Of a stretch of DNA of 64,000 nucleotides, positions 39,539-48,396 are shown piece by piece. Made by a program: the position numbers and the translations under genes. The DNA is from Oscillospiraceae bacterium (lineage in GTDB: Bacteria > Bacillota > Clostridia > Oscillospirales > Ruminococcaceae). The first letter of the stretch is position 1; every line of letters begins with the position of its first letter. The DNA lies in assembly GCA_900752435.1 (NCBI GenBank), contig CAADVD010000016.1, positions 70,367 through 134,366 on the forward strand. The letters are read 5' to 3'. Under the pieces are notes generated by a model. The model saw nothing but the letters and a program-made list of their open reading frames with translations. It did no database searches and was not told where the DNA came from.

Positions 39539-39650
39539 CTGGATTCCCTCTTTCCGTTTTCTTTATCACCAAATTACTCCAAACGAGGGCAATCAATTCC
39601 TCTCGTATGCCTAACGATCATGAAAAAAGTGTCTCACATAAACTGGAATT

Positions 39651-40361
39651 TTACTCATTATACCAATATCCCTTTTCATCCACCCTCCGAGGATGTTCTT
39701 TCAAATAGGGGCTGTTATCTCCCACAAGCCAATAATCACACACAGTATTGTTGGAACAAGTATGTTTCCGGATTAGGCCTGCATGTAAAAGCTCCATAGC
39801 CGGATAATCTCCATTGCAAAATGCGGGCATTAAGTTTAGATAGTTATGCGCTTTTGCAAATTCTGCAATCGGACATTGTTCAAATTGATAGTGTATGCCT
39901 TTCTCTTTGTCATAAGCGTCCACCTTCATAATATATCCACTGGGGATGGCATTCTTTTCATCTTTTTTTGCTGTGGAAACAAAAGCCTGATTCAACAGTC
40001 TCAACACCAGCGGATGATTCGCATTGATCACTTTTCCCAGCAATTGAAACGCCGGAAGGAATGTCTCATTATTCATCTGATACAGTTCATTCATCGACGG
40101 TTTCTCATCCTGTACTTCATAATAAGCAAAGAGCGCAATGCAGTCATAGGTGCCTCCTGTCCCGTTATGTTCGTTTTTCTTCCCTCCCAGATCAGGAAGA
40201 TCTTGCAGAAATTCAACATACTGCATCTGTACTTTTTCCCACATATCTTGAGCCGCTTCTTCAGAATAATGCATCCGAAGGTGTTTCTGTATGACTGTTT
40301 TCACCCGTTTTGAATAGCACACATGTTTTTCTCGGTCAAAGTTTATGCTTTTTTCATCCAT
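39651..40361 (-). CDS. hypothetical Cys-containing protein (possibly ATC-hydrolase-like, from memory); first gene of the low-GC island
   Basis: 236 aa, AT-rich relative to flanking DNA, start after GAGGTGA. Weak family recollection only. Confidence 0.45.
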   Translation of the reverse strand: MDEKSINFDREKHVCYSKRVKTVIQKHLRMHYSEEAAQDMWEKVQMQYVEFLQDLPDLGGKKNEHNGTGGTYDCIALFAYYEVQDEKPSMNELYQMNNETFLPAFQLLGKVINANHPLVLRLLNQAFVSTAKKDEKNAIPSGYIMKVDAYDKEKGIHYQFEQCPIAEFAKAHNYLNLMPAFCNGDYPAMELLHAGLIRKHTCSNNTVCDYWLVGDNSPYLKEHPRRVDEKGYWYNE

Positions 40362-40568
40362 TAACGTTCACCTCAAATTTAGGTCTACTACTTTATTGTA
40401 ACACGTTCTGCTGTTCATTGCCACTACATTCTCTCCGGATGCTCCTCGGATATCCTTGCACAATCGAATGGTCGTACACAACCGAAAACAGCCCACTGCA
40501 ATACAGTGAGCCGTTCCGGAAAAATATCATATTCGCTTTATGAAAAGGCTTTCGCCCAATCACCAAAA

Positions 40569-41111
40569 TTAATAGTTTTGCGCTTTTACTTGGAAGTAAG
40601 CCTGCGGATGTGCGCATACCGGACAGATTCCCGGCGCTTGTTTGCCAATGTGAATGTGACCGCAGTTGGCGCACTGCCAAATGGTGTCGCCGTCCTTGGA
40701 AAAGACCAGTCCGTCTTTGACATTTGCCAACAGCTTGAGGTAACGTTCCTCGTGTTCCTTTTCGATTCGGCCGACCGCTTCAAACAGATACGCAATGTGG
40801 TCAAAGCCTTCCTCTTTGGCTACTTTGGCAAATTCAGCGTACATGTCCGTCCACTCGTAGTTTTCACCGTCCGCCGCGTCTTTCAGATTGGCCGCTGTGT
40901 CCGGAATGCTGCCGTCGTGAAGCAGTTTAAACCAAATTTTCGCATGCTCTTTTTCGTTGTTGGCAGTTTCTTCAAAAATCTGTGCGATTTGAACGAAACC
41001 GTCTTTTCTTGCCTTGGAAGCGTAATAAGTATACTTGTTTCTTGCCTGGCTCTCGCCCGCAAACGCCGCCTGTAAGTTTGCTTCTGTTCTTGAACCTTTT
41101 AATTCCATCAT
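40569..41111 (-). CDS. rbr: rubrerythrin (ferritin-like diiron domain plus C-terminal rubredoxin-like CxxC...CxxC)
   Basis: ExxH diiron motifs and CANCGH...CPVCAHP. Start at the ATGATG after AAAGAGG. Confidence 0.9.
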
Positions 41112-41161
41112 CAAAACCTCTTTCTTTTTTCGCCTATTGTATCGGATTGCCTGTATGTGTG

Positions 41162-41548
41162 CTAATGTCCTTGTTTTTTGCTGCATTCTTTGCAAGTGCC
41201 GTAAAACAACAGCTCGCAGCGCGATACAGCAAAACCAGTCTGTTCAAAGATGGATTCCTCCAGCGATTTCCACTCTGGAAGCTCCACGTCCAACACCGTT
41301 TTGCATTCACTGCAAATCATGTGAAAATGCGGCTGGGTGCATCCATCAAACCGGTCGCTTCCGTTGGGTACGCTGATTTTTAAAATATCGCCGTTTTGCG
41401 CCAACAGATTGAGGTTGCGATAGACGGTACCCAAACTGATGTTGGGCAATTTTTGGCGAATCAGCGCATACACGTCATCGGCCGTTGGATGAATCCGATT
41501 CTGCAGCACGGTCTCCAAAATTAACTCCCGCTGTTTGGAATATTTCAT
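41162..41548 (-). CDS. perR: Fur-family peroxide-responsive repressor (PerR-like)
   Basis: Fur-family HTH, HFHMIC...C and CxxC metal sites. Directly upstream of rubrerythrin. Confidence 0.8.
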
Positions 41549-41571
41549 TCCTCCACCTCCGCTGTTGTTTA

Positions 41572-41602
41572 ATCAATAATAGTAATCATTACTATTATTG
41601 AT
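41572..41602. promoter_or_regulatory. 31-nt perfect palindrome (14-bp arms TCAATAATAGTAAT/ATTACTATTATTGA); putative PerR/Fur box
   Basis: Seen directly, between the perR -10 element and the SD. Confidence 0.5.
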
Positions 41603-41608
41603 GTGTTT

Positions 41609-41637
41609 ATTATATCGCATCCGCATCCGGTTGTCAA
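41609..41637 (-). promoter_or_regulatory. sigma70-type promoter of the perR-rbr operon (TTGACA, 17 nt, TATAAT)
   Basis: Seen directly. Confidence 0.5.
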
Positions 41638-41878
41638 GGAATTTTTTTATTTTTTCTCCTTTATTTTGAGCGATTTTTGTTTTGCCTATACAAGTCTGCA
41701 AATAAAAAGCCAAGAACGAAATGGAAGTACATTCACAAATCTACACGCCGAAAAAATTTTTTCAAAAAATTTTTCCTTCCGTGAAAGTGTCTGAAATGCC
41801 CATTGTTACACAATTGTTTCCTTTTGGTAACCGTCCAATAGTGTCCTTTTGGTAACTACGCCACAATAAAGTGCTTAC

Positions 41879-41907
41879 TTTACAGGTGAAACTTGCCTGC
41901 GTATAAT
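41879..41907 (+). promoter_or_regulatory. sigma70-type promoter (TTTACA, 17 nt, TATAAT) of the FMN-protein/macro/SIR2 operon
   Basis: Seen directly. Preceded by direct repeats CCTTTTGGTAAC at 41820-41831 and 41855-41866. Confidence 0.45.
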
Positions 41908-42017
41908 ATAGACAAGAGCTACAAAGAGCGGCCGCTCCGAAGCCAAAATGACAAACACTTAGAAAGTTCTTGAACTCATTAACACTTTCGCTACTGATGA
42001 TTAGGAGGACAGAAAAG

Positions 42018-42632
42018 ATGGACTATTTACGATATTTAGAACAAGAAATCCATTCCGTCGTTATGGCAACTGTTGATCATACAGGATTGCCTGTTACCTG
42101 TGCCGTTGACATCATGGATAGTGACGAAAAAGGACTGTATTTTCTTACCGCAAAAGGAAAGGGCTTTTATGACCGATTAAAAAAGAACGGCTATGCTGCA
42201 CTAACCGGAATGAAAGGAAATGATACGCTGTCCTGCGTGGCAGTTTCTGTTCGTGGTAAAGTATGTGAGCTTGGGAGTAAACCGCTTCCTAGGTTGTTTG
42301 CAAAAAACAAATATATGAACGAAATCTACCCAACCGAACAATCCCGCAAAGCTCTTACCGTTTTTCAGCTTTATGAGGGCAGCGGAGAATGGTTTGATCT
42401 TTCAAAGAGGCCGATTGAGCGAGCTTCTTTTACAATTGGAGATAAACAAGAAGAAACACAGGGTTATTGGATTACCAAAAAATGTACCGGCTGTGAAGTC
42501 TGCAAAACCGTTTGTCCGCAGGGCTGTATTGATTTTACGGCCGCCCCTGCTATAATAAAACAGGAAAATTGCCTGCATTGCGGTAACTGTTTGGAGATTT
42601 GTCCGCAAGGTGCAGTTGTTCGGAAAGGATAA
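42018..42632 (+). CDS. pyridoxamine-5'-phosphate-oxidase-like FMN-binding split-barrel protein fused to a 2x[4Fe-4S] ferredoxin domain
   Basis: Start after AGGAGG. The C-terminus carries CTGCEVCKTVCP and CLHCGNCLEICP ferredoxin motifs. Confidence 0.7.
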   Translation: MDYLRYLEQEIHSVVMATVDHTGLPVTCAVDIMDSDEKGLYFLTAKGKGFYDRLKKNGYAALTGMKGNDTLSCVAVSVRGKVCELGSKPLPRLFAKNKYMNEIYPTEQSRKALTVFQLYEGSGEWFDLSKRPIERASFTIGDKQEETQGYWITKKCTGCEVCKTVCPQGCIDFTAAPAIIKQENCLHCGNCLEICPQGAVVRKG

Positions 42633-42636
42633 AAAA

Positions 42637-43416
42637 ATGACACAAACCGAAAGAAGAAAGTATTTGATCTCGGCGCTTTTGAAAGAACAGCCACAGTATT
42701 CTAAAATTGAAATTCCGGCGAGTGAGCAGGAACAAAAAGTTCTGCTCCGTTCGCTTTTTAATATTCGTATGGCACAGCCTGTGAGCGATGAATTTTTAGA
42801 AGTGCAGGACACCTATCTGAAAGAGGAAACCAAGAAAAAGGGGATCACTGACCTTGCCGACTTACAGCCTATACAGCAAGGCTTCTATCTTTGGCAAGGT
42901 GATATTACCACGCTTCGGTGTGACGCTATTGTAAATGCTGCCAACAGTCAAATGCTCGGCTGTTTCTATCCAAATCACGGGTGCATTGATAATGCCATTC
43001 ACACTTTTGCGGGGGTGCAGCTGCGTATTTCTTGTGCGGAATTGATGAAAAAACAGGGACACGAAGAAGCGACGGGAAAAGCAAAGATCACGCCTGCCTT
43101 TAATCTGCCCTGTAAATATGTCATCCATACCGTTGGTCCGATTGTTCGTAATAGGCTTACAAAAAAAGACAAGGAGCTGCTTGCGTCTTGCTACCATTCC
43201 TGTCTGGAGCTGGCGGAAAGAAGGGGTGTGAACAGCATTGCGTTTTGCTGTATTTCTACGGGAGAGTTCCATTTTCCCAATGATCAAGCGGCAAAGATTG
43301 CGATACAGACTGTAAAGGCGTACAAAGCACAGACACACAGCGAAATAGAGGTGATTTTCAATGTTTTTAAGGAAATCGATTATAGCATCTACCGAGAACT
43401 GCTCCGAGCAAATTAA
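42637..43416 (+). CDS. macrodomain protein (ADP-ribose-binding/hydrolase; SirTM-associated type)
   Basis: GDITTLRCDAIVNAANSQMLG...HTVGP macro motifs. Start is 5 nt after the upstream stop. Confidence 0.8.
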   Translation: MTQTERRKYLISALLKEQPQYSKIEIPASEQEQKVLLRSLFNIRMAQPVSDEFLEVQDTYLKEETKKKGITDLADLQPIQQGFYLWQGDITTLRCDAIVNAANSQMLGCFYPNHGCIDNAIHTFAGVQLRISCAELMKKQGHEEATGKAKITPAFNLPCKYVIHTVGPIVRNRLTKKDKELLASCYHSCLELAERRGVNSIAFCCISTGEFHFPNDQAAKIAIQTVKAYKAQTHSEIEVIFNVFKEIDYSIYRELLRAN

Positions 43417-44227
43417 CAAGCTGAAAAAAGAGCTCGAAACTGCCGATGCTATCGTAATCGGAGCAGGTGCGGGAATGTCTGCTTCGGCGGGTTTTGCGTA
43501 TGACGGCGAACGGTTCAAACGGTATTTTTCCGACTTTGAAGCAAAATACGGTTTTCACGATATGTATTCCGGCGGATTTTACCCTTATGAAACATTAGAG
43601 GAATACTGGGCGTGGTGGTCGCGGCATATATGGATAAACCGATATGATATTGGTGTTGGAAAACCATATGCCGATTTGCTGGAGCTTATAAAGGACAAGG
43701 ACTATTTTGTGCTTACCACCAACGTGGATCACCAATTCCAGCTTGCCGGTTTTGATAAAAAACGGCTGTTCTATACGCAGGGAGATTACGGCTTGTGGCA
43801 GTGCTCCAAAGCCTGTCACGATCAAACCTATGACAATGAGGACGCCGTGCGAATCATGGTGGCAGAACAAAAGAATATGAAAATCCCCACCAATCGGATT
43901 CCGAAGTGCCCTGTCTGCGGTGCTCCTATGACCATGAACTTACGCTGTGATGATCAATTCGTACAGGATAAAGGCTGGTATGCCGCCGCTGACCGATACG
44001 ATGACTTTATCCGTCGCCACAAAGATTTGCATATTCTGTTTTGGGAAATGGGCGTCGGGTTGAATACTCCTGTTATCATTAAATATCCGTTCTGGCAGAT
44101 GACGGCAAAGAACCCGAAAGCGGTCTATGCCTGCGTCAATGCCGGGGAGACTTATGCTCCAAGGGAAATCAAAGACCGATCCATCTGTATCAATGCAGAT
44201 ATTGGGGAGGTACTGGAACAATTATAA
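43361..44227 (+). CDS. SIR2-family protein, macrodomain-linked (SirTM-like putative protein ADP-ribosyltransferase)
   Basis: GAGAGMSASAG, TTNVDHQ and CPVCG zinc ribbon. The ATG lies 56 nt inside the macro gene, after AGAGGTGA. Confidence 0.8.
   Translation: MFLRKSIIASTENCSEQINKLKKELETADAIVIGAGAGMSASAGFAYDGERFKRYFSDFEAKYGFHDMYSGGFYPYETLEEYWAWWSRHIWINRYDIGVGKPYADLLELIKDKDYFVLTTNVDHQFQLAGFDKKRLFYTQGDYGLWQCSKACHDQTYDNEDAVRIMVAEQKNMKIPTNRIPKCPVCGAPMTMNLRCDDQFVQDKGWYAAADRYDDFIRRHKDLHILFWEMGVGLNTPVIIKYPFWQMTAKNPKAVYACVNAGETYAPREIKDRSICINADIGEVLEQL
44048..44227 (+). repeat. copy 1 (in the intact gene) of the SIR2 3'-end direct repeat
   Basis: About 80 nt are near-identical to 45866-45946 and there is about 70-75% identity to 46766-46930. 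Confidence 0.7.
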
Positions 44228-44430
44228 AACAACAGATTTAATTACACTTCTATGGTGTCATTTATCGTGTCAAACACTGGTTAGAATAATGGGTAGAATC
44301 GATATGCTTTCATTCTATAACTTGGAAAATAGCATTGAATTTGAGTGTAATACTCGCCTACATTTGTGGGCATAATGAAAAATATCAGGTCAAATCGGGT
44401 CGTGATTGGGTCAGAATCGGGTCATGTGCA

Positions 44431-44459
44431 TTGACGCGATTGCCCCGATTTGATATAAT
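44431..44459 (+). promoter_or_regulatory. sigma70-type promoter (TTGACG, 17 nt, TATAAT) for the AlbA_2 gene
   Basis: Seen directly. Upstream direct repeats ATCGGGTC occur twice at 44393-44427. Confidence 0.55.
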
Positions 44460-44493
44460 GTGTCCAGCGAATGAAAGCAAAGGAGATGGTATT

Positions 44494-45843
44494 ATGCTTT
44501 TTCGGGAAAGTGAAACCGTAGAACTGAAGGAAGTAATTGTAGATGATATAAAAAAGGAAATCATTGCTTTTGCTAACTGTGACGGCGGCAAACTGTATAT
44601 AGGTGTCCGGGATGATGGTACAGTCGTTGGCCTTGATGATCCTGACGGCGTTTCTTTACAGATCAGCAATATGGTAAGGGATGCAATCAAGCCCGATGTG
44701 ACGATGTTCCTGCATTATAAAACGATAAAGGAAGATGGAAAAGACCTTGTTGCGGTGGAGATTCAGCGCGGAACGAATCGCCCGTATTATCTTGCTAAAA
44801 AAGGGATGCGGCCAGAAGGCGTATATGTCAGGCAGGGATATTCTTCTGTTCCGGCCACTGACACGGCAATCCGCCATATGATTAAGGAAACGGATGGAGA
44901 CCGCTTTGAGGCTATGCGCTGCTTAAATCAGGAACTTACATTTGAAGCCGCAAAAAAAGAATTTGATCTTCGGGAAGTAGAGTTCGGACCACAGCAAATG
45001 CGTACTTTGAAGCTGATTGATCAAGATAACCTTTATAGCAATTTAGGCCTGCTTCTGTCCGATCAATGCGTCCATACGATTAAAGTCGCTGTTTTTCAGG
45101 GAACAGATCAGACAGTTTTTAAGGATCGCCGGGAATTTTCCGGATCGCTGATGCAGCAAATGAATGAAGTCTATGATTTTATTGACTTCCGTAATCAAAC
45201 CCGTGCAACCATAAAAAAGCTGTATAGAATTGATGTCAGGGACTACCCGGAAATCGCCGTTAGGGAAGCGTTACTAAATCTGCTGGTTCATCGCGATTAT
45301 TCCTTTAGTGCCAGTGCGCTTATCAGTATTTATGATGACCGGATTGAATTTATATCGATTGGCGGATTGATGCCGGGAATTGACCTGGAGGATATTATGG
45401 TAGGCATTTCTGTATGCAGAAACCAGGATCTTGCGAATGTGTTCTACCGGCTGCACTTGATTGAGGCTTATGGTACCGGAATGGGAAAGATTATGAGGGC
45501 ATACGAAGGTATGGAAGAAAAGCCCTTGATTGAAACGACCAAAAATGCCTTTAAGATCATATTGCCTAACATTAACGCAAAATATGAAATGGGAAAGGTT
45601 TCTGCACCGAAAACAGAATCAATCACAAATTCTGTTGCCGGAGCTAAAAAAAGCCTGAGCAATGAAGAAAGAGTATTGGAATATGCTCAGTCTCATGGTG
45701 TTATTACAAGAAATGATGTCATCGAATTGCTTGAAGTAAGTACATCTACCGCTTCCAGAGTTATTCGGAAAATGGTAAAAAACAACTTGCTAAAGCGGAA
45801 TGGAAAAGCAAGAAGCACCAATTACACTGTTATAAAACAGTAA
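44494..45843 (+). CDS. Schlafen/AlbA_2 (divergent AAA) domain protein with C-terminal HATPase-like region and HTH (RecG-like putative transcriptional regulator)
   Basis: N-terminal ...LKEVIVDDIKKEIIAFANCDGGKLYIGV... is typical of AlbA_2. C-terminal winged HTH. Start after AAAGGAGATGG. Confidence 0.75.
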   Translation: MLFRESETVELKEVIVDDIKKEIIAFANCDGGKLYIGVRDDGTVVGLDDPDGVSLQISNMVRDAIKPDVTMFLHYKTIKEDGKDLVAVEIQRGTNRPYYLAKKGMRPEGVYVRQGYSSVPATDTAIRHMIKETDGDRFEAMRCLNQELTFEAAKKEFDLREVEFGPQQMRTLKLIDQDNLYSNLGLLLSDQCVHTIKVAVFQGTDQTVFKDRREFSGSLMQQMNEVYDFIDFRNQTRATIKKLYRIDVRDYPEIAVREALLNLLVHRDYSFSASALISIYDDRIEFISIGGLMPGIDLEDIMVGISVCRNQDLANVFYRLHLIEAYGTGMGKIMRAYEGMEEKPLIETTKNAFKIILPNINAKYEMGKVSAPKTESITNSVAGAKKSLSNEERVLEYAQSHGVITRNDVIELLEVSTSTASRVIRKMVKNNLLKRNGKARSTNYTVIKQ

Positions 45844-45844
45844 A

Positions 45845-46027
45845 ATGGTGCGCAATAAACATAACACCCCTGTTATCATTAAATATCCGTTCTGGCAGAT
45901 GACGGCAAAGAACCCGAAAGCGGTCTATGCCTGCGTCAATGCCGGGGAGGCTTATGTGCCAAAGGAAATCACAGACCGTGCAATCTGTATAAATGGAGAC
46001 ATTGGTCAGATTCTGGAGAAAATATAG
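45845..46027 (+). pseudogene. orphan SIR2 C-terminal fragment (copy 2 of the repeat)
   Basis: 60-aa ORF MVRNKHNTPVIIKYPFWQMTAKNPKAVYACVNAGEAYVPKEITDRAICINGDIGQILEKI aligns with the last ~57 aa of the SIR2 gene. No SD; the ATG is 1 nt after the AlbA_2 stop. Confidence 0.5.
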
Positions 46028-46062
46028 GCGGCGCCTACCATAAGTAAACGCCGCCTCTGTTC

Positions 46063-46329
46063 TTAAAACTGGTCTAAAATATCATGGTGTCCGACATCAA
46101 TGAGGATAATCATTTTGTCGCCCTCGTAGTACCAGATAATGCGGATGTCCATGTTGACGCTGCATTCAAACAAATCTCTGGTGCCTTGGATGCGCTTGGT
46201 GCGTAGGGATGGGTGCATAGGATTCTCAGCTAAAAGCTGCAATTTATTTTAAAGCTGCTTTTTCTCCTGTGCGCTCAGACCTTTAAAGTGTTTTTGAAAC
46301 CGTTTGGTAAAGGTAAACTGGTAGGCCAT
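46063..46329 (-). pseudogene. RelE/ParE-family type II toxin gene disrupted by an in-frame TAA at codon 27
   Basis: Reading through the stop gives MAYQFTFTKRFQKHFKGLSAQEKKQL*NKLQLLAENPMHPSLRTKRIQGTRDLFECSVNMDIRIIWYYEGDKMIILIDVGHHDILDQF, a ParE/RelE fold signature. The ATG overlaps the antitoxin stop (ATGA). Confidence 0.6.
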
Positions 46330-46589
46330 CAATCCGCCTCCAGTTTCGCAAACAGTGCGTCTACACTGTCGAATACGGGCTGTTCGCCGGAGGCAATCTT
46401 TGCTTTTGCCTCGTCAATTTCTCCTCGGAGCTCATCGAGGTACTTTTTCGGATATACGGCAACCGGCATCATGCAGATGGTTCCGTCCTGCTCGAAAATG
46501 TCCAGCATATCGCCTTCAGATAGTCCCAGTTTTACGATGATTTCTTTGGGGATGGTAATCTGTGACTTCTGACGTAATTCGGCCAGCAT
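46329..46589 (-). CDS. AbrB/MazE (SpoVT_AbrB)-type antitoxin
   Basis: SQITIPKEIIVKLGLSEGDML swapped-hairpin motif, SD AAGGAGATG, directly upstream of the toxin remnant. Confidence 0.7.
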   Translation of the reverse strand: MLAELRQKSQITIPKEIIVKLGLSEGDMLDIFEQDGTICMMPVAVYPKKYLDELRGEIDEAKAKIASGEQPVFDSVDALFAKLEAD

Positions 46590-46744
46590 ACAATCATCTC
46601 CTTTGCTGCAAGAGTGAAAGTAGGAATTTCTAACTTTCTTACTTATAGTATATCCACTTTTGGAGGATTATGCAAGAGAATGCGAAAAAATTCACAAAGT
46701 AAAACAATATTATTCCACGTAAAAGGCATGAATGGTTTCATAAA

Positions 46745-46930
46745 ATGGCGCGCAATAAACACAGCACCCCTGTTATCATTAAATATCCGTTCTGGCAGAT
46801 GACGGCCCAAAACAGGAAAGCCACCTATGCTTGTATCAACTTCGAACAGGCTGTCTGCCCGAAAGAGATTCAAGGGCAGTCTATCTGCATTGACAGCGAC
46901 ATCGGAAGCGTCTTAAATGCTCTAAAATAA
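46745..46930 (+). pseudogene. orphan SIR2 C-terminal fragment (copy 3 of the repeat)
   Basis: 61-aa ORF MARNKHSTPVIIKYPFWQMTAQNRKATYACINFEQAVCPKEIQGQSICIDSDIGSVLNALK. No SD. Confidence 0.5.
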
Positions 46931-47232
46931 GAGAGCGGCAAAGAAAAAGGGCGCTGCCAAAACGACAGCGCCGCAACACAAAAGAAAGGAAGAATGGAAG
47001 GGTAAACAGTCCACAGAAACAAATTGTCCGTATTGCGTCATTTTTTCATTGAAAAAGATTGAAAAATTTTTCATTTTATGCTTAAATGAAAAAGGTACAA
47101 TGCAGTTTCAAACAACACAATTGACAATTCATTTTTGAGTACATCCATAGTATAACACAAACACCCCCATGAGTTTGTCGAAAAACTGTATGTTTATCAT
47201 GAAATTTTTATGACCGAAAGGAAACTTTTCCG

Positions 47233-48396
47233 ATGCTCATTCTAAACGCCAACATCCTCTCCATGGAAAAACACAATTACCCAAACGGGTATTTGCACAT
47301 TCAAGACGGCCTCATCCAAGCGGTCGGCGACATGCAGAGTCTTACCATTGAAGATGCCGAAACACTGGATGTGCAGGGCGCAACCGTCATTCCCGGCTTG
47401 ATTGACGCACATTCTCATTTGGGCATGTGGGAGGACGGCTTGGGCTTCGAGGGAGATGACGGCAACGAGGAAACCGACCCGGTCACGCCGCAAATGCGCG
47501 CCATCGACGCGGTCAATCCGGCTGACCGGTGCTTTACGGAAGCGCTTCAAGCCGGTATCACCACCGTGCTGACGGGACCGGGCAGCGCCAACCCGATTTC
47601 CGGTGTGTGGTGTGCCATGAAAACCTATGGCCGCCGCATTGACGATATGCTTCTTCAAGCGCAGGCCGGTATGAAGTTCAGCCTCGGCGAAAATCCCAAA
47701 AGCGTTTACAACGGCAAAAATGAAACGCCCATGACGCGCATGGCGACCGCCGCCCTTATCCGCGAACAGCTTGAAAAAGCCAGACGTTACATGCAGGACG
47801 TCAAACGCGCCAAAAAAGAGCATGAAGATCCACCGGAATATGATATTAAGTGCGAAGCGCTGATTCCGGTTCTGAAGCGCAAAATGAAAGCGTTTTTCCA
47901 CGCTCACCGCGCGGACGATATCTTTACAGCCATTCGCATCGCAAAAGAATTTGAACTCGATTATGTCATTGTTCACGGTACGGAAGGCTACCAAATTGCC
48001 GATATTCTGGCGGCAGAACAGACGCGTGTCATCGCCGGTCCGATTCTCTGTGACCGCTCGAAGCCGGAACTGCGCAATCTGAACATTGAAAATCCGGCCA
48101 TCTTAGCCGCGCACGACGTCACCACCGCCATTTGCACCGACCATCCGGTGATTCCGATTCAATATCTGCCGCTGACCGGCGGCATTGCCGTCAGGGCTGG
48201 ATTGGATGCAGACAAAGCACTTGCCATGATGACCAGCGTTCCGGCAAAAATTTGTGGCATCGACAAGCGCGTCGGCTCCATCAAGCCGGGCAAAGACGCC
48301 GATTTGCTGATTTACCGCGGCGATTTGCTCAATGTTTATTTCAATCCCGACTATGTACTGATAAACGGCGAAATTGTCGTCAACAATAAGAAGTAG
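47233..48396 (+). CDS. metal-dependent amidohydrolase-family protein
   Basis: IDAHSH metal-binding motif and a TIM-barrel amidohydrolase layout. Confidence 0.8.
   Translation: MLILNANILSMEKHNYPNGYLHIQDGLIQAVGDMQSLTIEDAETLDVQGATVIPGLIDAHSHLGMWEDGLGFEGDDGNEETDPVTPQMRAIDAVNPADRCFTEALQAGITTVLTGPGSANPISGVWCAMKTYGRRIDDMLLQAQAGMKFSLGENPKSVYNGKNETPMTRMATAALIREQLEKARRYMQDVKRAKKEHEDPPEYDIKCEALIPVLKRKMKAFFHAHRADDIFTAIRIAKEFELDYVIVHGTEGYQIADILAAEQTRVIAGPILCDRSKPELRNLNIENPAILAAHDVTTAICTDHPVIPIQYLPLTGGIAVRAGLDADKALAMMTSVPAKICGIDKRVGSIKPGKDADLLIYRGDLLNVYFNPDYVLINGEIVVNNKK

Follow-up and report, generated by a model that had tools for sequence, protein, structure and literature searches.

The 3′ end of a class-M sirtuin (SirTM) gene is present as three direct copies in a 64,000-nt stretch of the genome of an Oscillospiraceae bacterium (contig CAADVD010000016.1, positions 70,367 to 134,366; hereafter the window), with an AlbA_2/Schlafen-type gene and a toxin-antitoxin module located between them. 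These copies are very probably the footprints of serial site-specific insertion of mobile units (cassettes) into the SirTM gene, and the locus is a real, polymorphic mobile-element hot spot.

The SirTM gene of the window is intact (43361-44227, + strand) and encodes a 288 amino acid product, which lacks a Pfam match and is similar to PDB structure 5a3a over residues 17-284 (E=5.2e-78). Alignment of the window against itself places the three copies of its last ~160 nt at 44063-44226 (copy 1), 45863-46026 (copy 2) and 46763-46926 (copy 3), the latter two sharing 88% and 63% identity, respectively, with the gene end. The recurrence of this gene end at two downstream positions had been observed in a preliminary description of the DNA, which also reported about 80 nt of near-identity between copies 1 and 2 followed by about 75% identity; the measured values are an 81-nt tract of complete identity (44069-44149 and 45869-45949), starting exactly at the crossover dinucleotide described below, and 75.6% identity across the other 78 nt. 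A 35-nt core (CCTGTTATCATTAAATATCCGTTCTGGCAGATGAC) matches exactly across all three copies, with none expected on the basis of 100 shuffles, while the tails encoded by the copies share 62-81% amino acid identity, the conserved residues being common to all versions. Copies 2 and 3 each form part of an intact open reading frame (ORF) with its own ATG, as described earlier, located at 45845-46027 (60 aa) and 46745-46930 (61 aa). Both are annotated as 'hypothetical protein' in public annotations (P0121, P0124), and the start ATG of each falls inside an element-end motif. They are by-products, that is displaced gene ends, and not genes.

This motif, 26 nt in length (AAAATGGYGCGCAATAAACAYARCAC), had been overlooked in the preliminary description. 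It is located directly 5′ of copies 2 and 3, is not found 5′ of copy 1, and would not be expected by chance (0 expected occurrences). No repetition of sequence upstream of the N-T-P codons of the sirtuin was found in the window alignments. The insertions are always at the same dinucleotide, CC, located 159 nt from the SirTM stop codon, where it makes up positions 1-2 of the Pro codon belonging to the conserved N-T-P motif. Downstream of each CC, all three copies agree perfectly over 41 nt. The first CC (44069-44070) is the attL-type junction between the chromosomal left arm and cassette 1, as determined by junction alignment of the empty, one- and two-cassette alleles; codons 1-236 of SirTM are native, and from the Pro codon on the gene is read from cassette 1. 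Copy 1 downstream of this junction (44071-44227) is the surrogate, and chimeric, 3′ end supplied by cassette 1, identified by comparison with copy 2 and with a related locus (L110). The right-end motif of cassette 1, an attP-type half-site or 'P arm' (45843-45868, + strand), matches the family consensus perfectly and precedes the second CC (45869-45870), the junction between the two cassettes. The corresponding motif of cassette 2 (46743-46768, + strand) shows three deviations from the consensus and precedes the third CC (46769-46770), the attR-type junction between cassette 2 and the chromosome.

As a query for the native gene end, an artificial protein was assembled from SirTM residues 1-235 and the tail of copy 3. 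It matched a 289 aa protein (P0001) at 99%, the N-terminal 235 aa being identical to those of the window protein. The locus encoding this protein (L160) is an empty site, with the same gene order but no cassettes, where the SirTM gene ends in copy 3 and is directly followed by the amidohydrolase gene. It is 98.4% identical to the window up to position 44139 and, with homology resuming at 46766, 98.3% identical from there to 50000; the two alignments flank a 2700-bp gap bounded by the core and overlap only in this shared core. As the empty-site SirTM gene ends in copy 3 (46771-46930 in the window, with four nucleotide differences), this copy is the native SirTM end, pushed 2.7 kb downstream. 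A one-cassette allele is furthermore found at six loci (L161-L166), where copy 2 forms the end of SirTM, and an intact toxin gene (88 aa), the antitoxin gene, the motif and an orphan copy 3 come next, with 98.3-98.7% identity to the window from 45863 on (L161/L166). Deletion of 44069-45868 (1800 bp) from the window gives this allele. Copy 2 (45871-46027), an orphan in the window, is thus the functional gene end in one-cassette strains, whose SirTM proteins P0012 and P0014 end in it. The empty allele represents the unoccupied attachment site (attB), and in both the empty and one-cassette alleles the flanks are 98% identical, with boundaries at the CC and core. The variation in cargo and copy number among related loci, which the preliminary description had named as a check, is borne out by syntenic alleles with zero, one or two cassettes. 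Cargo was indeed inserted repeatedly within the 3′ part of this gene, producing the order gene end, cargo, second end, cargo, third end. Three further loci (L167-L169; P0055, P0056 and P0059) carry a different, larger element with a DUF5720 gene at the same CC. Here SirTM is cut to 274 aa, the left end of this element encoding no sirtuin tail, and the correspondence with the window is one of synteny rather than of aligned identity. The contigs end inside the element, of which the available part (L167:10706-12352, also in L168 and L169) encodes the DUF5720 protein and a 303 aa ORF without a Pfam match. Exact look-ups of the window SirTM, Macro and amidohydrolase proteins retrieved only the two-cassette array or contigs broken at the repeat, and no variation, while an identity ranking of 80 SirTM homologues, comparing the N-terminal part with each C-terminus for identification of the native copy, was not decisive, the best relatives being ~80% identical.

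The same architecture occurs in other species. Among 80 SirTM loci obtained by scanning one genome per species with the SirTM protein, 76 lack an orphan copy, while extra orphan 3′ ends are present at three, comprising SirTM, an AlbA_2 gene and an orphan in L057, SirTM, an intact toxin-antitoxin pair and an orphan in L072, and SirTM with two AAA_14/DUF4143 ATPase units, each followed by an orphan, in L063. All six orphans compared, including the two of the window, start with the 26-nt motif, although they were found by the C-terminal peptide alone and irrespective of cargo, and the sequences upstream of the motif are unrelated unless the cargo is the same. Three of the six are frameshifted or truncated (in L057 and L063), and orphans are thus not kept as coding sequence.

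The surrogate 3′ end belongs to the cargo on its right. A C-terminal variant containing 'RMAHEWKNA' completes SirTM in L072 and forms an orphan behind an AlbA_2 unit in L110, with 98% identity between the two and the toxin gene immediately to its right in both loci. The block of identity between these loci (96.5%) starts exactly at the junction and runs into the toxin gene, compared to only 81% identity between the host SirTM genes. Similarly, L114 and L147 have an identical left C-terminus and related AlbA_2 cargo (94.6% nucleotide identity overall) followed by different right C-termini. As the left tail travels with the cargo, the unit comprises a surrogate SirTM tail, the cargo and the 26-nt half-site. 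The target duplication proposed in the preliminary description must therefore be abandoned, since every insert arrives with a surrogate 3′ end of its own, the same unusual variant accompanying the same cargo across genomes and array positions, and the most downstream copy is the displaced native end.

Cassettes of the same types measure 1729-1851 nt and 835 nt elsewhere, compared to 1800 and 900 nt in the window. The exact spacing in the window raised the possibility of an artificial construct, which was rejected on account of these other lengths and the existence of natural alleles; the exact 1800/900-nt spacing is a coincidence. Tandem arrays with recombinase-less members are found in the window and in L063, L110, L131 and L144, and the cargo types, namely AlbA_2, toxin-antitoxin, two kinds of AAA_14/DUF4143 ATPase and AbiEi/AbiEii, occur in varying orders and hosts. 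AlbA_2 cargo is present in similar units of L057, L110, L114, L131, L147 and L149. In L110 a truncated toxin gene is directly followed by an ATPase gene, with no antitoxin gene or junction between them. The AlbA_2 unit of L057 is without its own surrogate tail; between the SirTM stop codon and the AlbA_2 promoter region of this decayed array (L057:10868-10935) lies a stump resembling a toxin gene 3′ end with a partial element-end motif (TGGTGCGCAATAAACATAA).

A metagenome scan for the 26-nt motif yielded 65 loci, and 69 non-redundant sites were sorted by their upstream content. A large serine recombinase (LSR) gene, coding for a protein of ~560 aa, is located upstream at 33 of the 69 sites, its 3′ end abutting or overlapping the motif, a feature likewise absent from the preliminary description. 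The remaining sites are preceded by an AAA_14/DUF4143 ATPase gene (12/69; PADLOC candidate PDC-S01), an AlbA_2 gene (11/69), a type II toxin-antitoxin pair (3/69) or an AbiEi/AbiEii pair (2/69), with eight sites unresolved or too near a contig end. The recombinases contain Resolvase, Recombinase, Zn_ribbon_recom and DUF4368 domains, and the closest solved structure to the catalytic domain is that of TnpX of Tn4451 (PDB 2mhc, E=2e-37). DUF4368 marks the TndX-like, multi-targeting LSR clade (PMC10083194). In one subfamily (L102, L103 and L130) the motif bases GGTGCGCAATAA form the last codons of the recombinase gene (Gly-Ala-Gln-stop); the same bases correspond to the ATG region of the orphan ORFs in another frame. 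The L103 element also carries genes for a MobA/MobL relaxase, RepA_N, an IstB-like ATPase, a ParM-like protein and a STAND NTPase, and as such looks like an integrative mobilisable element. An LSR element is also located next to an AlbA_2 unit in L124.

A complete LSR element of 4957 bp lies between the SirTM gene and an orphan in L130. Its attL reads ACG|CC|AACAATAG and its attR ACC|CC|CGTTATC, with only CC in common, and this 2-bp overlap is what a serine recombinase leaves. A half-site combined with a shared 2-bp crossover is likewise present in the window, the motif being found at both junctions there and at every orphan elsewhere. At approximately nine loci, the DNA that continues from the motif directly after ...ACACCCC is unrelated to SirTM, which fits a role for these junctions as putative secondary sites. 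Irrespective of cargo, conservation breaks off sharply at ~28 nt from the crossover, a distance equal to one half-site. A motif scan of viral contigs gave no matches and hence no sign that the elements are phages. In L146 (33-1910) the motif is followed by non-sirtuin DNA and then, on the opposite strand, by the SirTM N-terminal part and the Macro gene, an arrangement that may be an inversion between sites. In L099 (176-1232) and L117, an LSR element is joined, at the equivalent position, to the tail of a distant SirTM paralog (~32% identical).

On the basis of these comparisons, we propose that SirTM contains the chromosomal attachment site for an element family moved by a TnpX/TndX-like LSR with DUF4368, for which strand exchange would take place at the CC of the N-T-P Pro codon. 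Most elements, the L167 element excepted, start with their own copy of the last 53 SirTM codons, so that the gene stays intact, and end in the ~26-nt recombinase half-site that abuts or overlaps the LSR gene 3′ end in autonomous members. Cassette 1 (44069-45868, 1800 bp) consists of a surrogate end, a promoter, the AlbA_2/HATPase_c_4/winged-helix gene and a half-site, and cassette 2 (45869-46768, 900 bp) of a surrogate end, the YafQ/ParE-MazE module and a half-site. Recombinase genes adjoin the motif at 33 of the 69 sites and are not part of the window units, for which a tblastn search with the cognate LSR found no homologue in the window; the units are as such non-autonomous relatives of LSR integrative elements and not full members. 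The statement in the preliminary description that the window harbors no integrase or transposase holds for this recombinase, while other integrases and transposases were not screened. We infer with moderate confidence that the cassettes without a recombinase were placed, and may still be movable, by an LSR supplied in trans from a sister element, because conservation ends ~28 nt from the crossover whatever the cargo and because the same unit has site-specific boundaries in hosts with much more divergent SirTM genes. As the surrogate tail begins like the native one, the gene-proximal junction would again be attB-like and the motif junctions attP-like. With lower confidence, entry next to the gene, as at the attI site of integrons, and excision by the recombinase alone may be possible. 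TnpX and TndX insert and excise without a separate directionality factor, which fits the latter.

A number of observations weigh against this explanation. The lack of an LSR homologue leaves catalysis in this genome putative. By visual inspection, the two sides of the CC show weak dyad symmetry, the inferred attP of the window being symmetric at 9 of 13-14 positions and that of L130 poorly so, and this symmetry is not relied on as evidence. Clean LSR exchange predicts neither the chimeric structure of copy 1 nor the 41-nt identity in all copies. The first 84 nt of copy 1, counted from the Thr codon (44066), are the same as in copy 2 bar the Thr third base, and are host-like, whereas positions 85-162 are 87% identical to the AlbA_2-linked C-terminus of L110, compared to 70% for positions 1-84. 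As this pattern does not arise from clean serine recombinase exchange, gene conversion or homologous crossover must have acted, and the 84-nt and 41-nt identity tracts probably derive from such events among the copies. The one- and two-cassette alleles could accordingly interconvert by homologous deletion rather than through an LSR, and the order of events cannot be read with certainty because homologous recombination has acted on the copies. Cassette 2 furthermore looks old, given its degenerate motif, with a further substitution and a 1-nt deletion in the L166 copy, and the toxin pseudogene in the window; the pseudogenised toxin and the three motif deviations suggest that the toxin-antitoxin unit is the older of the two. 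Plain deletional decay is evident in the L057 and L110 arrays. Lastly, exact look-ups of the ORFs predicted at circle junctions (motif plus copy 1, and cassette 2 motif plus copy 2) found none, a weak negative, while the two real orphan ORFs used as a control were both recovered.

Much of this evidence is shared with a rival account, in which the window cassettes are dead remnants of larger recombinase-bearing elements, passed on by vertical inheritance or homologous exchange without mobilisation in trans. This account accepts the insertion origin and disputes present-day mobility only. The missing LSR homologue, the chimeric copy 1 and its 41- and 84-nt tracts as products of homologous crossover or conversion, the toxin pseudogene, the degenerate motifs of cassette 2 and L166, the deleted L057 and L110 arrays and the unsuccessful circle-junction look-ups would all follow from it. 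Independent deletions should, however, leave variable recombinase stumps, and conservation instead stops sharply ~28 nt from the crossover. Moreover, approximately half of the motif sites are without an LSR and fall into a few recurrent single-gene types, and the L072/L110 toxin-antitoxin unit keeps its whole surrogate end in two left contexts although the host SirTM genes are only 81% identical. The retention of this end from the first bases after the junction indicates a site-specific rather than a homologous event for L072/L110. We therefore consider the remnant account rather unlikely.

The origin of the copies as decay remnants of three tandem sirtuin paralogs has a parallel in L028 (6534-10909), the only tandem-paralog case among the 80 SirTM loci, where ~3.5 kb separates two complete SirTM paralogs and a DUF4143 ATPase gene comes after the second, which has a Macro gene of its own. 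In the window, nothing 5′ of the N-T-P codons is repeated, a mobile-element motif rather than sirtuin sequence precedes copies 2 and 3, and the intervening genes recur as units in other genomes, while the empty-site allele, with its 98% identical flanks, and the one-cassette allele refute this origin, to which we assign a negligible probability. An assembly artefact is just as implausible. Short-read contigs do end or start in the core (L085, L086 and L090-L092), but the full two-cassette array is carried by at least six independently assembled contigs, including contigs of 440 kb and 24 kb from independent samples, and intermediate alleles by many more, which excludes it. Every insertion or deletion changes the last 53 SirTM residues, yielding versions that are 62-81% identical, and the array could thus be read as a programmed switch of the SirTM C-terminus with orphans as silent alternatives, in the manner of a shufflon or orphan toxin C-termini. 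A protein from an 1184-nt contig (P0013) has a tail that is copy 2-like up to ...GDIG and copy 1-like (EVLEQL) at the very end, the mixed end expected of such a switch, although on so short a contig it may be an assembly chimera across the repeat as well as a true recombinant. The variable part of the arrays, however, is the cargo genes and not the C-termini, whose conserved residues are the same in all versions, orphans are often frameshifted or truncated (L057, L063), and no LSR gene is located beside the array, other recombinases not having been looked for. Programmed switching is as such highly improbable. The alternative or orphan C-terminal cassettes suggested in the preliminary description fail for related reasons, as the C-termini are ordinary homologues, the cargo genes are not immunity genes and half of the six orphans are broken.

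Returning to insertion by a recombinase in trans, the SirTM 3′ end of gut Clostridia may, as a tentative extension, represent an integron-like collecting platform run by a serine recombinase, a possibility for which we claim less than even confidence. The minimal unit of such a platform, composed of a surrogate gene tail, a single gene for defence or addiction under its own promoter and the 26-nt half-site, would be excised and inserted by TnpX/TndX-like recombinases encoded on larger sister elements. The first ~25 nt of the tail being native-like, the gene-proximal junction would become a working attB again, permitting unlimited growth and reshuffling of the array, with the last 53 residues of the enzyme swapped at each event.

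The closest analogue appears to be the composite island formed by the staphylococcal cassette chromosome (SCC) elements SCCmec and psi-SCC at rlmH. Composite islands with recombinase-less psi-SCC elements have been described at the 3′ end of rlmH (orfX) in staphylococci (bioRxiv 10.1101/336396; PMC7029136). In both systems, a conserved housekeeping-type gene receives LSR-mediated insertions in its 3′ part and survives them, and tandem elements, a mix of recombinase-bearing and recombinase-less members, are split by repeats of the target gene end. They differ in the target (SirTM rather than rlmH), in the recombinase, which here belongs to the TnpX/TndX-like DUF4368 clade rather than Ccr, a distinction resting on TnpX as closest solved structure and not on direct comparison with Ccr, and in the length of the replaced end, which is 53 codons (~160 nt) here compared to a handful. 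Many of the present units are furthermore single-gene units of 0.8-2 kb, the cargo consists of toxin-antitoxin and defence-candidate genes as opposed to resistance genes, and the hosts are gut Clostridia. The preliminary description knew of no precedent. This holds in that no publication on serine recombinase elements, cassette arrays or mobile elements at a sirtuin or SirTM gene was found, the literature coverage being incomplete. The SCC islands do constitute a close mechanistic precedent.

The transposons Tn4451/Tn4453 (TnpX) and Tn5397 (TndX) resemble the present elements in recombinase type, as judged by the match to 2mhc and the DUF4368 domain. In these transposons the crossover is GA, the recombinase gene lies at the opposite end, and the target gene is not known to be rebuilt. 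The crossover here is CC, the recombinase gene reads out of the right end, and most elements, other than that of L167, carry a surrogate target-gene 3′ end. We know of no description of recombinase-less single-gene-unit arrays for Tn4451, Tn4453 or Tn5397. The multi-targeting nature of the clade (PMC10083194) fits the approximately nine non-SirTM junctions.

With integrons, the arrays share small, mostly single-gene units that each end in a recombination site and are stacked at one chromosomal site, a cargo rich in toxin-antitoxin and defence-type genes and, from the observed orders, perhaps the position of the newest unit next to the fixed site. Any recombinase that occurs is of the serine type and encoded inside one unit, and the cassettes have their own promoters and a piece of the target gene. 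Neither an IntI tyrosine recombinase nor folded attC sites are evident, although no scan or folding aimed at these was made. Since the unit ends are the 26-nt serine recombinase-associated motif, it is very unlikely that the window array is a true integron. Integrase-less elements flanked by att sites are also found in tandem with autonomous ones at a gene 3′ end in the accretion of cis-mobilizable elements (CIMEs) and integrative and conjugative elements (ICEs), where the CIMEs can be mobilised in cis or trans. This accretion, at the 3′ end of fda in Streptococcus thermophilus (ICESt1/ICESt3), involves a tyrosine integrase, short identity segments and much larger elements. The likeness to the orphan C-termini of Rhs and CdiA toxins is one of appearance only, namely an intact gene followed by displaced 3′ fragments and genes, newer ends pushing older ones downstream. 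In those systems, unrelated toxin C-termini, each with an immunity gene, are displaced by homologous recombination, whereas the tails here are homologous enzyme tails with unrelated cargo (an AlbA_2 regulator-like gene and a type II toxin-antitoxin pair) and serine recombinase site borders, and the unrelated toxic C-termini with immunity genes that define orphan polymorphic toxins were not found.

The macrodomain protein-ADP-ribose hydrolase gene that is the operon partner of SirTM (42637-43416, + strand; Pfam Macro E=1.7e-40; NCBIfam NF003163 E=5.6e-114) overlaps the SirTM start by 56 nt at its 3′ end, and its exact 259 aa product is called on 11 contigs. The similarity to 5a3a and the macrodomain hydrolase gene in the operon identify the sirtuin as class M, while the GcvH-like and LplA2 operon genes typical of Staphylococcus and Streptococcus SirTM loci are not found at the window locus. 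Among named SirTM relatives, the nearest carry the labels Oscillospiraceae and Bianquea. The neighboring genes encode a PNPOx-ferredoxin protein, Fur and rubrerythrin upstream, and an amidohydrolase downstream (47233-48396, + strand; Pfam Amidohydro_1 5e-22), the first core gene of the right flank common to all alleles (synteny L160-L166). An extra gene with a SnoaL_2 domain is located between the Fur and PNPOx-ferredoxin genes in L161 (3803-4576), L162-L165 and L167-L169. It is absent from the window, L160 and L166, and as such is a second indel polymorphism in the operon region. A block of lower G+C content (0.37-0.51, mostly 0.40-0.47; flanks 0.55-0.58) extends over ~39600-47200 of the window, spanning the rubrerythrin, Fur, PNPOx-ferredoxin, Macro and SirTM genes and the cassettes; as the empty-site strain has the same core genes, the cassettes alone do not explain it.

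The cargo identities given in the preliminary description are confirmed by Pfam. Cassette 1 encodes a 449 aa protein with AlbA_2/Schlafen, HATPase_c_4 and winged-helix domains (44494-45843, + strand; SLFN_AlbA_2 5.4e-22, HATPase_c_4 1.6e-16), preceded by a promoter-like site, TTGACG-17-TATAAT with a TG extension (44431-44459, + strand; a consensus match only, at 11/12 positions), the region around which is within the homology to L057 that starts at 44361. A defence role for this protein is not claimed, the PADLOC matches being weak and partial (pAgo-associated models, E~1e-13, ~110 residues). In cassette 2, a MazE/AbrB-type antitoxin gene of 86 codons (46329-46589, - strand; MazE_antitoxin 5.1e-9) is intact, while the YafQ/ParE-family toxin gene (46063-46329, - strand; YafQ_toxin 2.2e-8, ParE_toxin 2.4e-6) is a pseudogene, an in-frame TAA at 46249-46251 replacing the AAA (Lys) of relatives; the toxin gene is intact in L072 as well as in L161-L166. 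Two hairpins are terminator-like by pattern match only, one G+C-rich with a T-run and a 14-bp stem between copy 2 and the convergent toxin gene (46026-46056, - strand), and the other with a 10-bp stem after the native gene end (46950-46972, - strand), following copy 3 on the + strand. A 23-nt inverted repeat (44476-44498 and 46585-46607; 87% complementary; AGCAAAGGAGATGGTATTATGCT) covers the ribosome-binding site and start codon of both the AlbA_2 and the antitoxin gene, these genes having nearly the same translation-initiation region.

The triple repeat is thus explained as a hot spot that stacks mobile DNA without inactivating the host gene. An attachment site not described before, comprising the CC in the SirTM N-T-P codons and the 26-nt element-end motif, emerges from sequence alone and belongs to a serine recombinase element family that is widespread in human-gut Clostridia. 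As the units without an LSR carry AbiE, toxin-antitoxin, PDC-S01 ATPase and Schlafen/AlbA_2 genes, the motif provides a handle for finding small defence and addiction modules and instances of their exchange among gut species. Should the units be mobilised in trans, they would constitute a serine recombinase counterpart of integron cassettes, and the site would provide a compact natural attP/attB pair from a multi-targeting LSR clade used in genome engineering.

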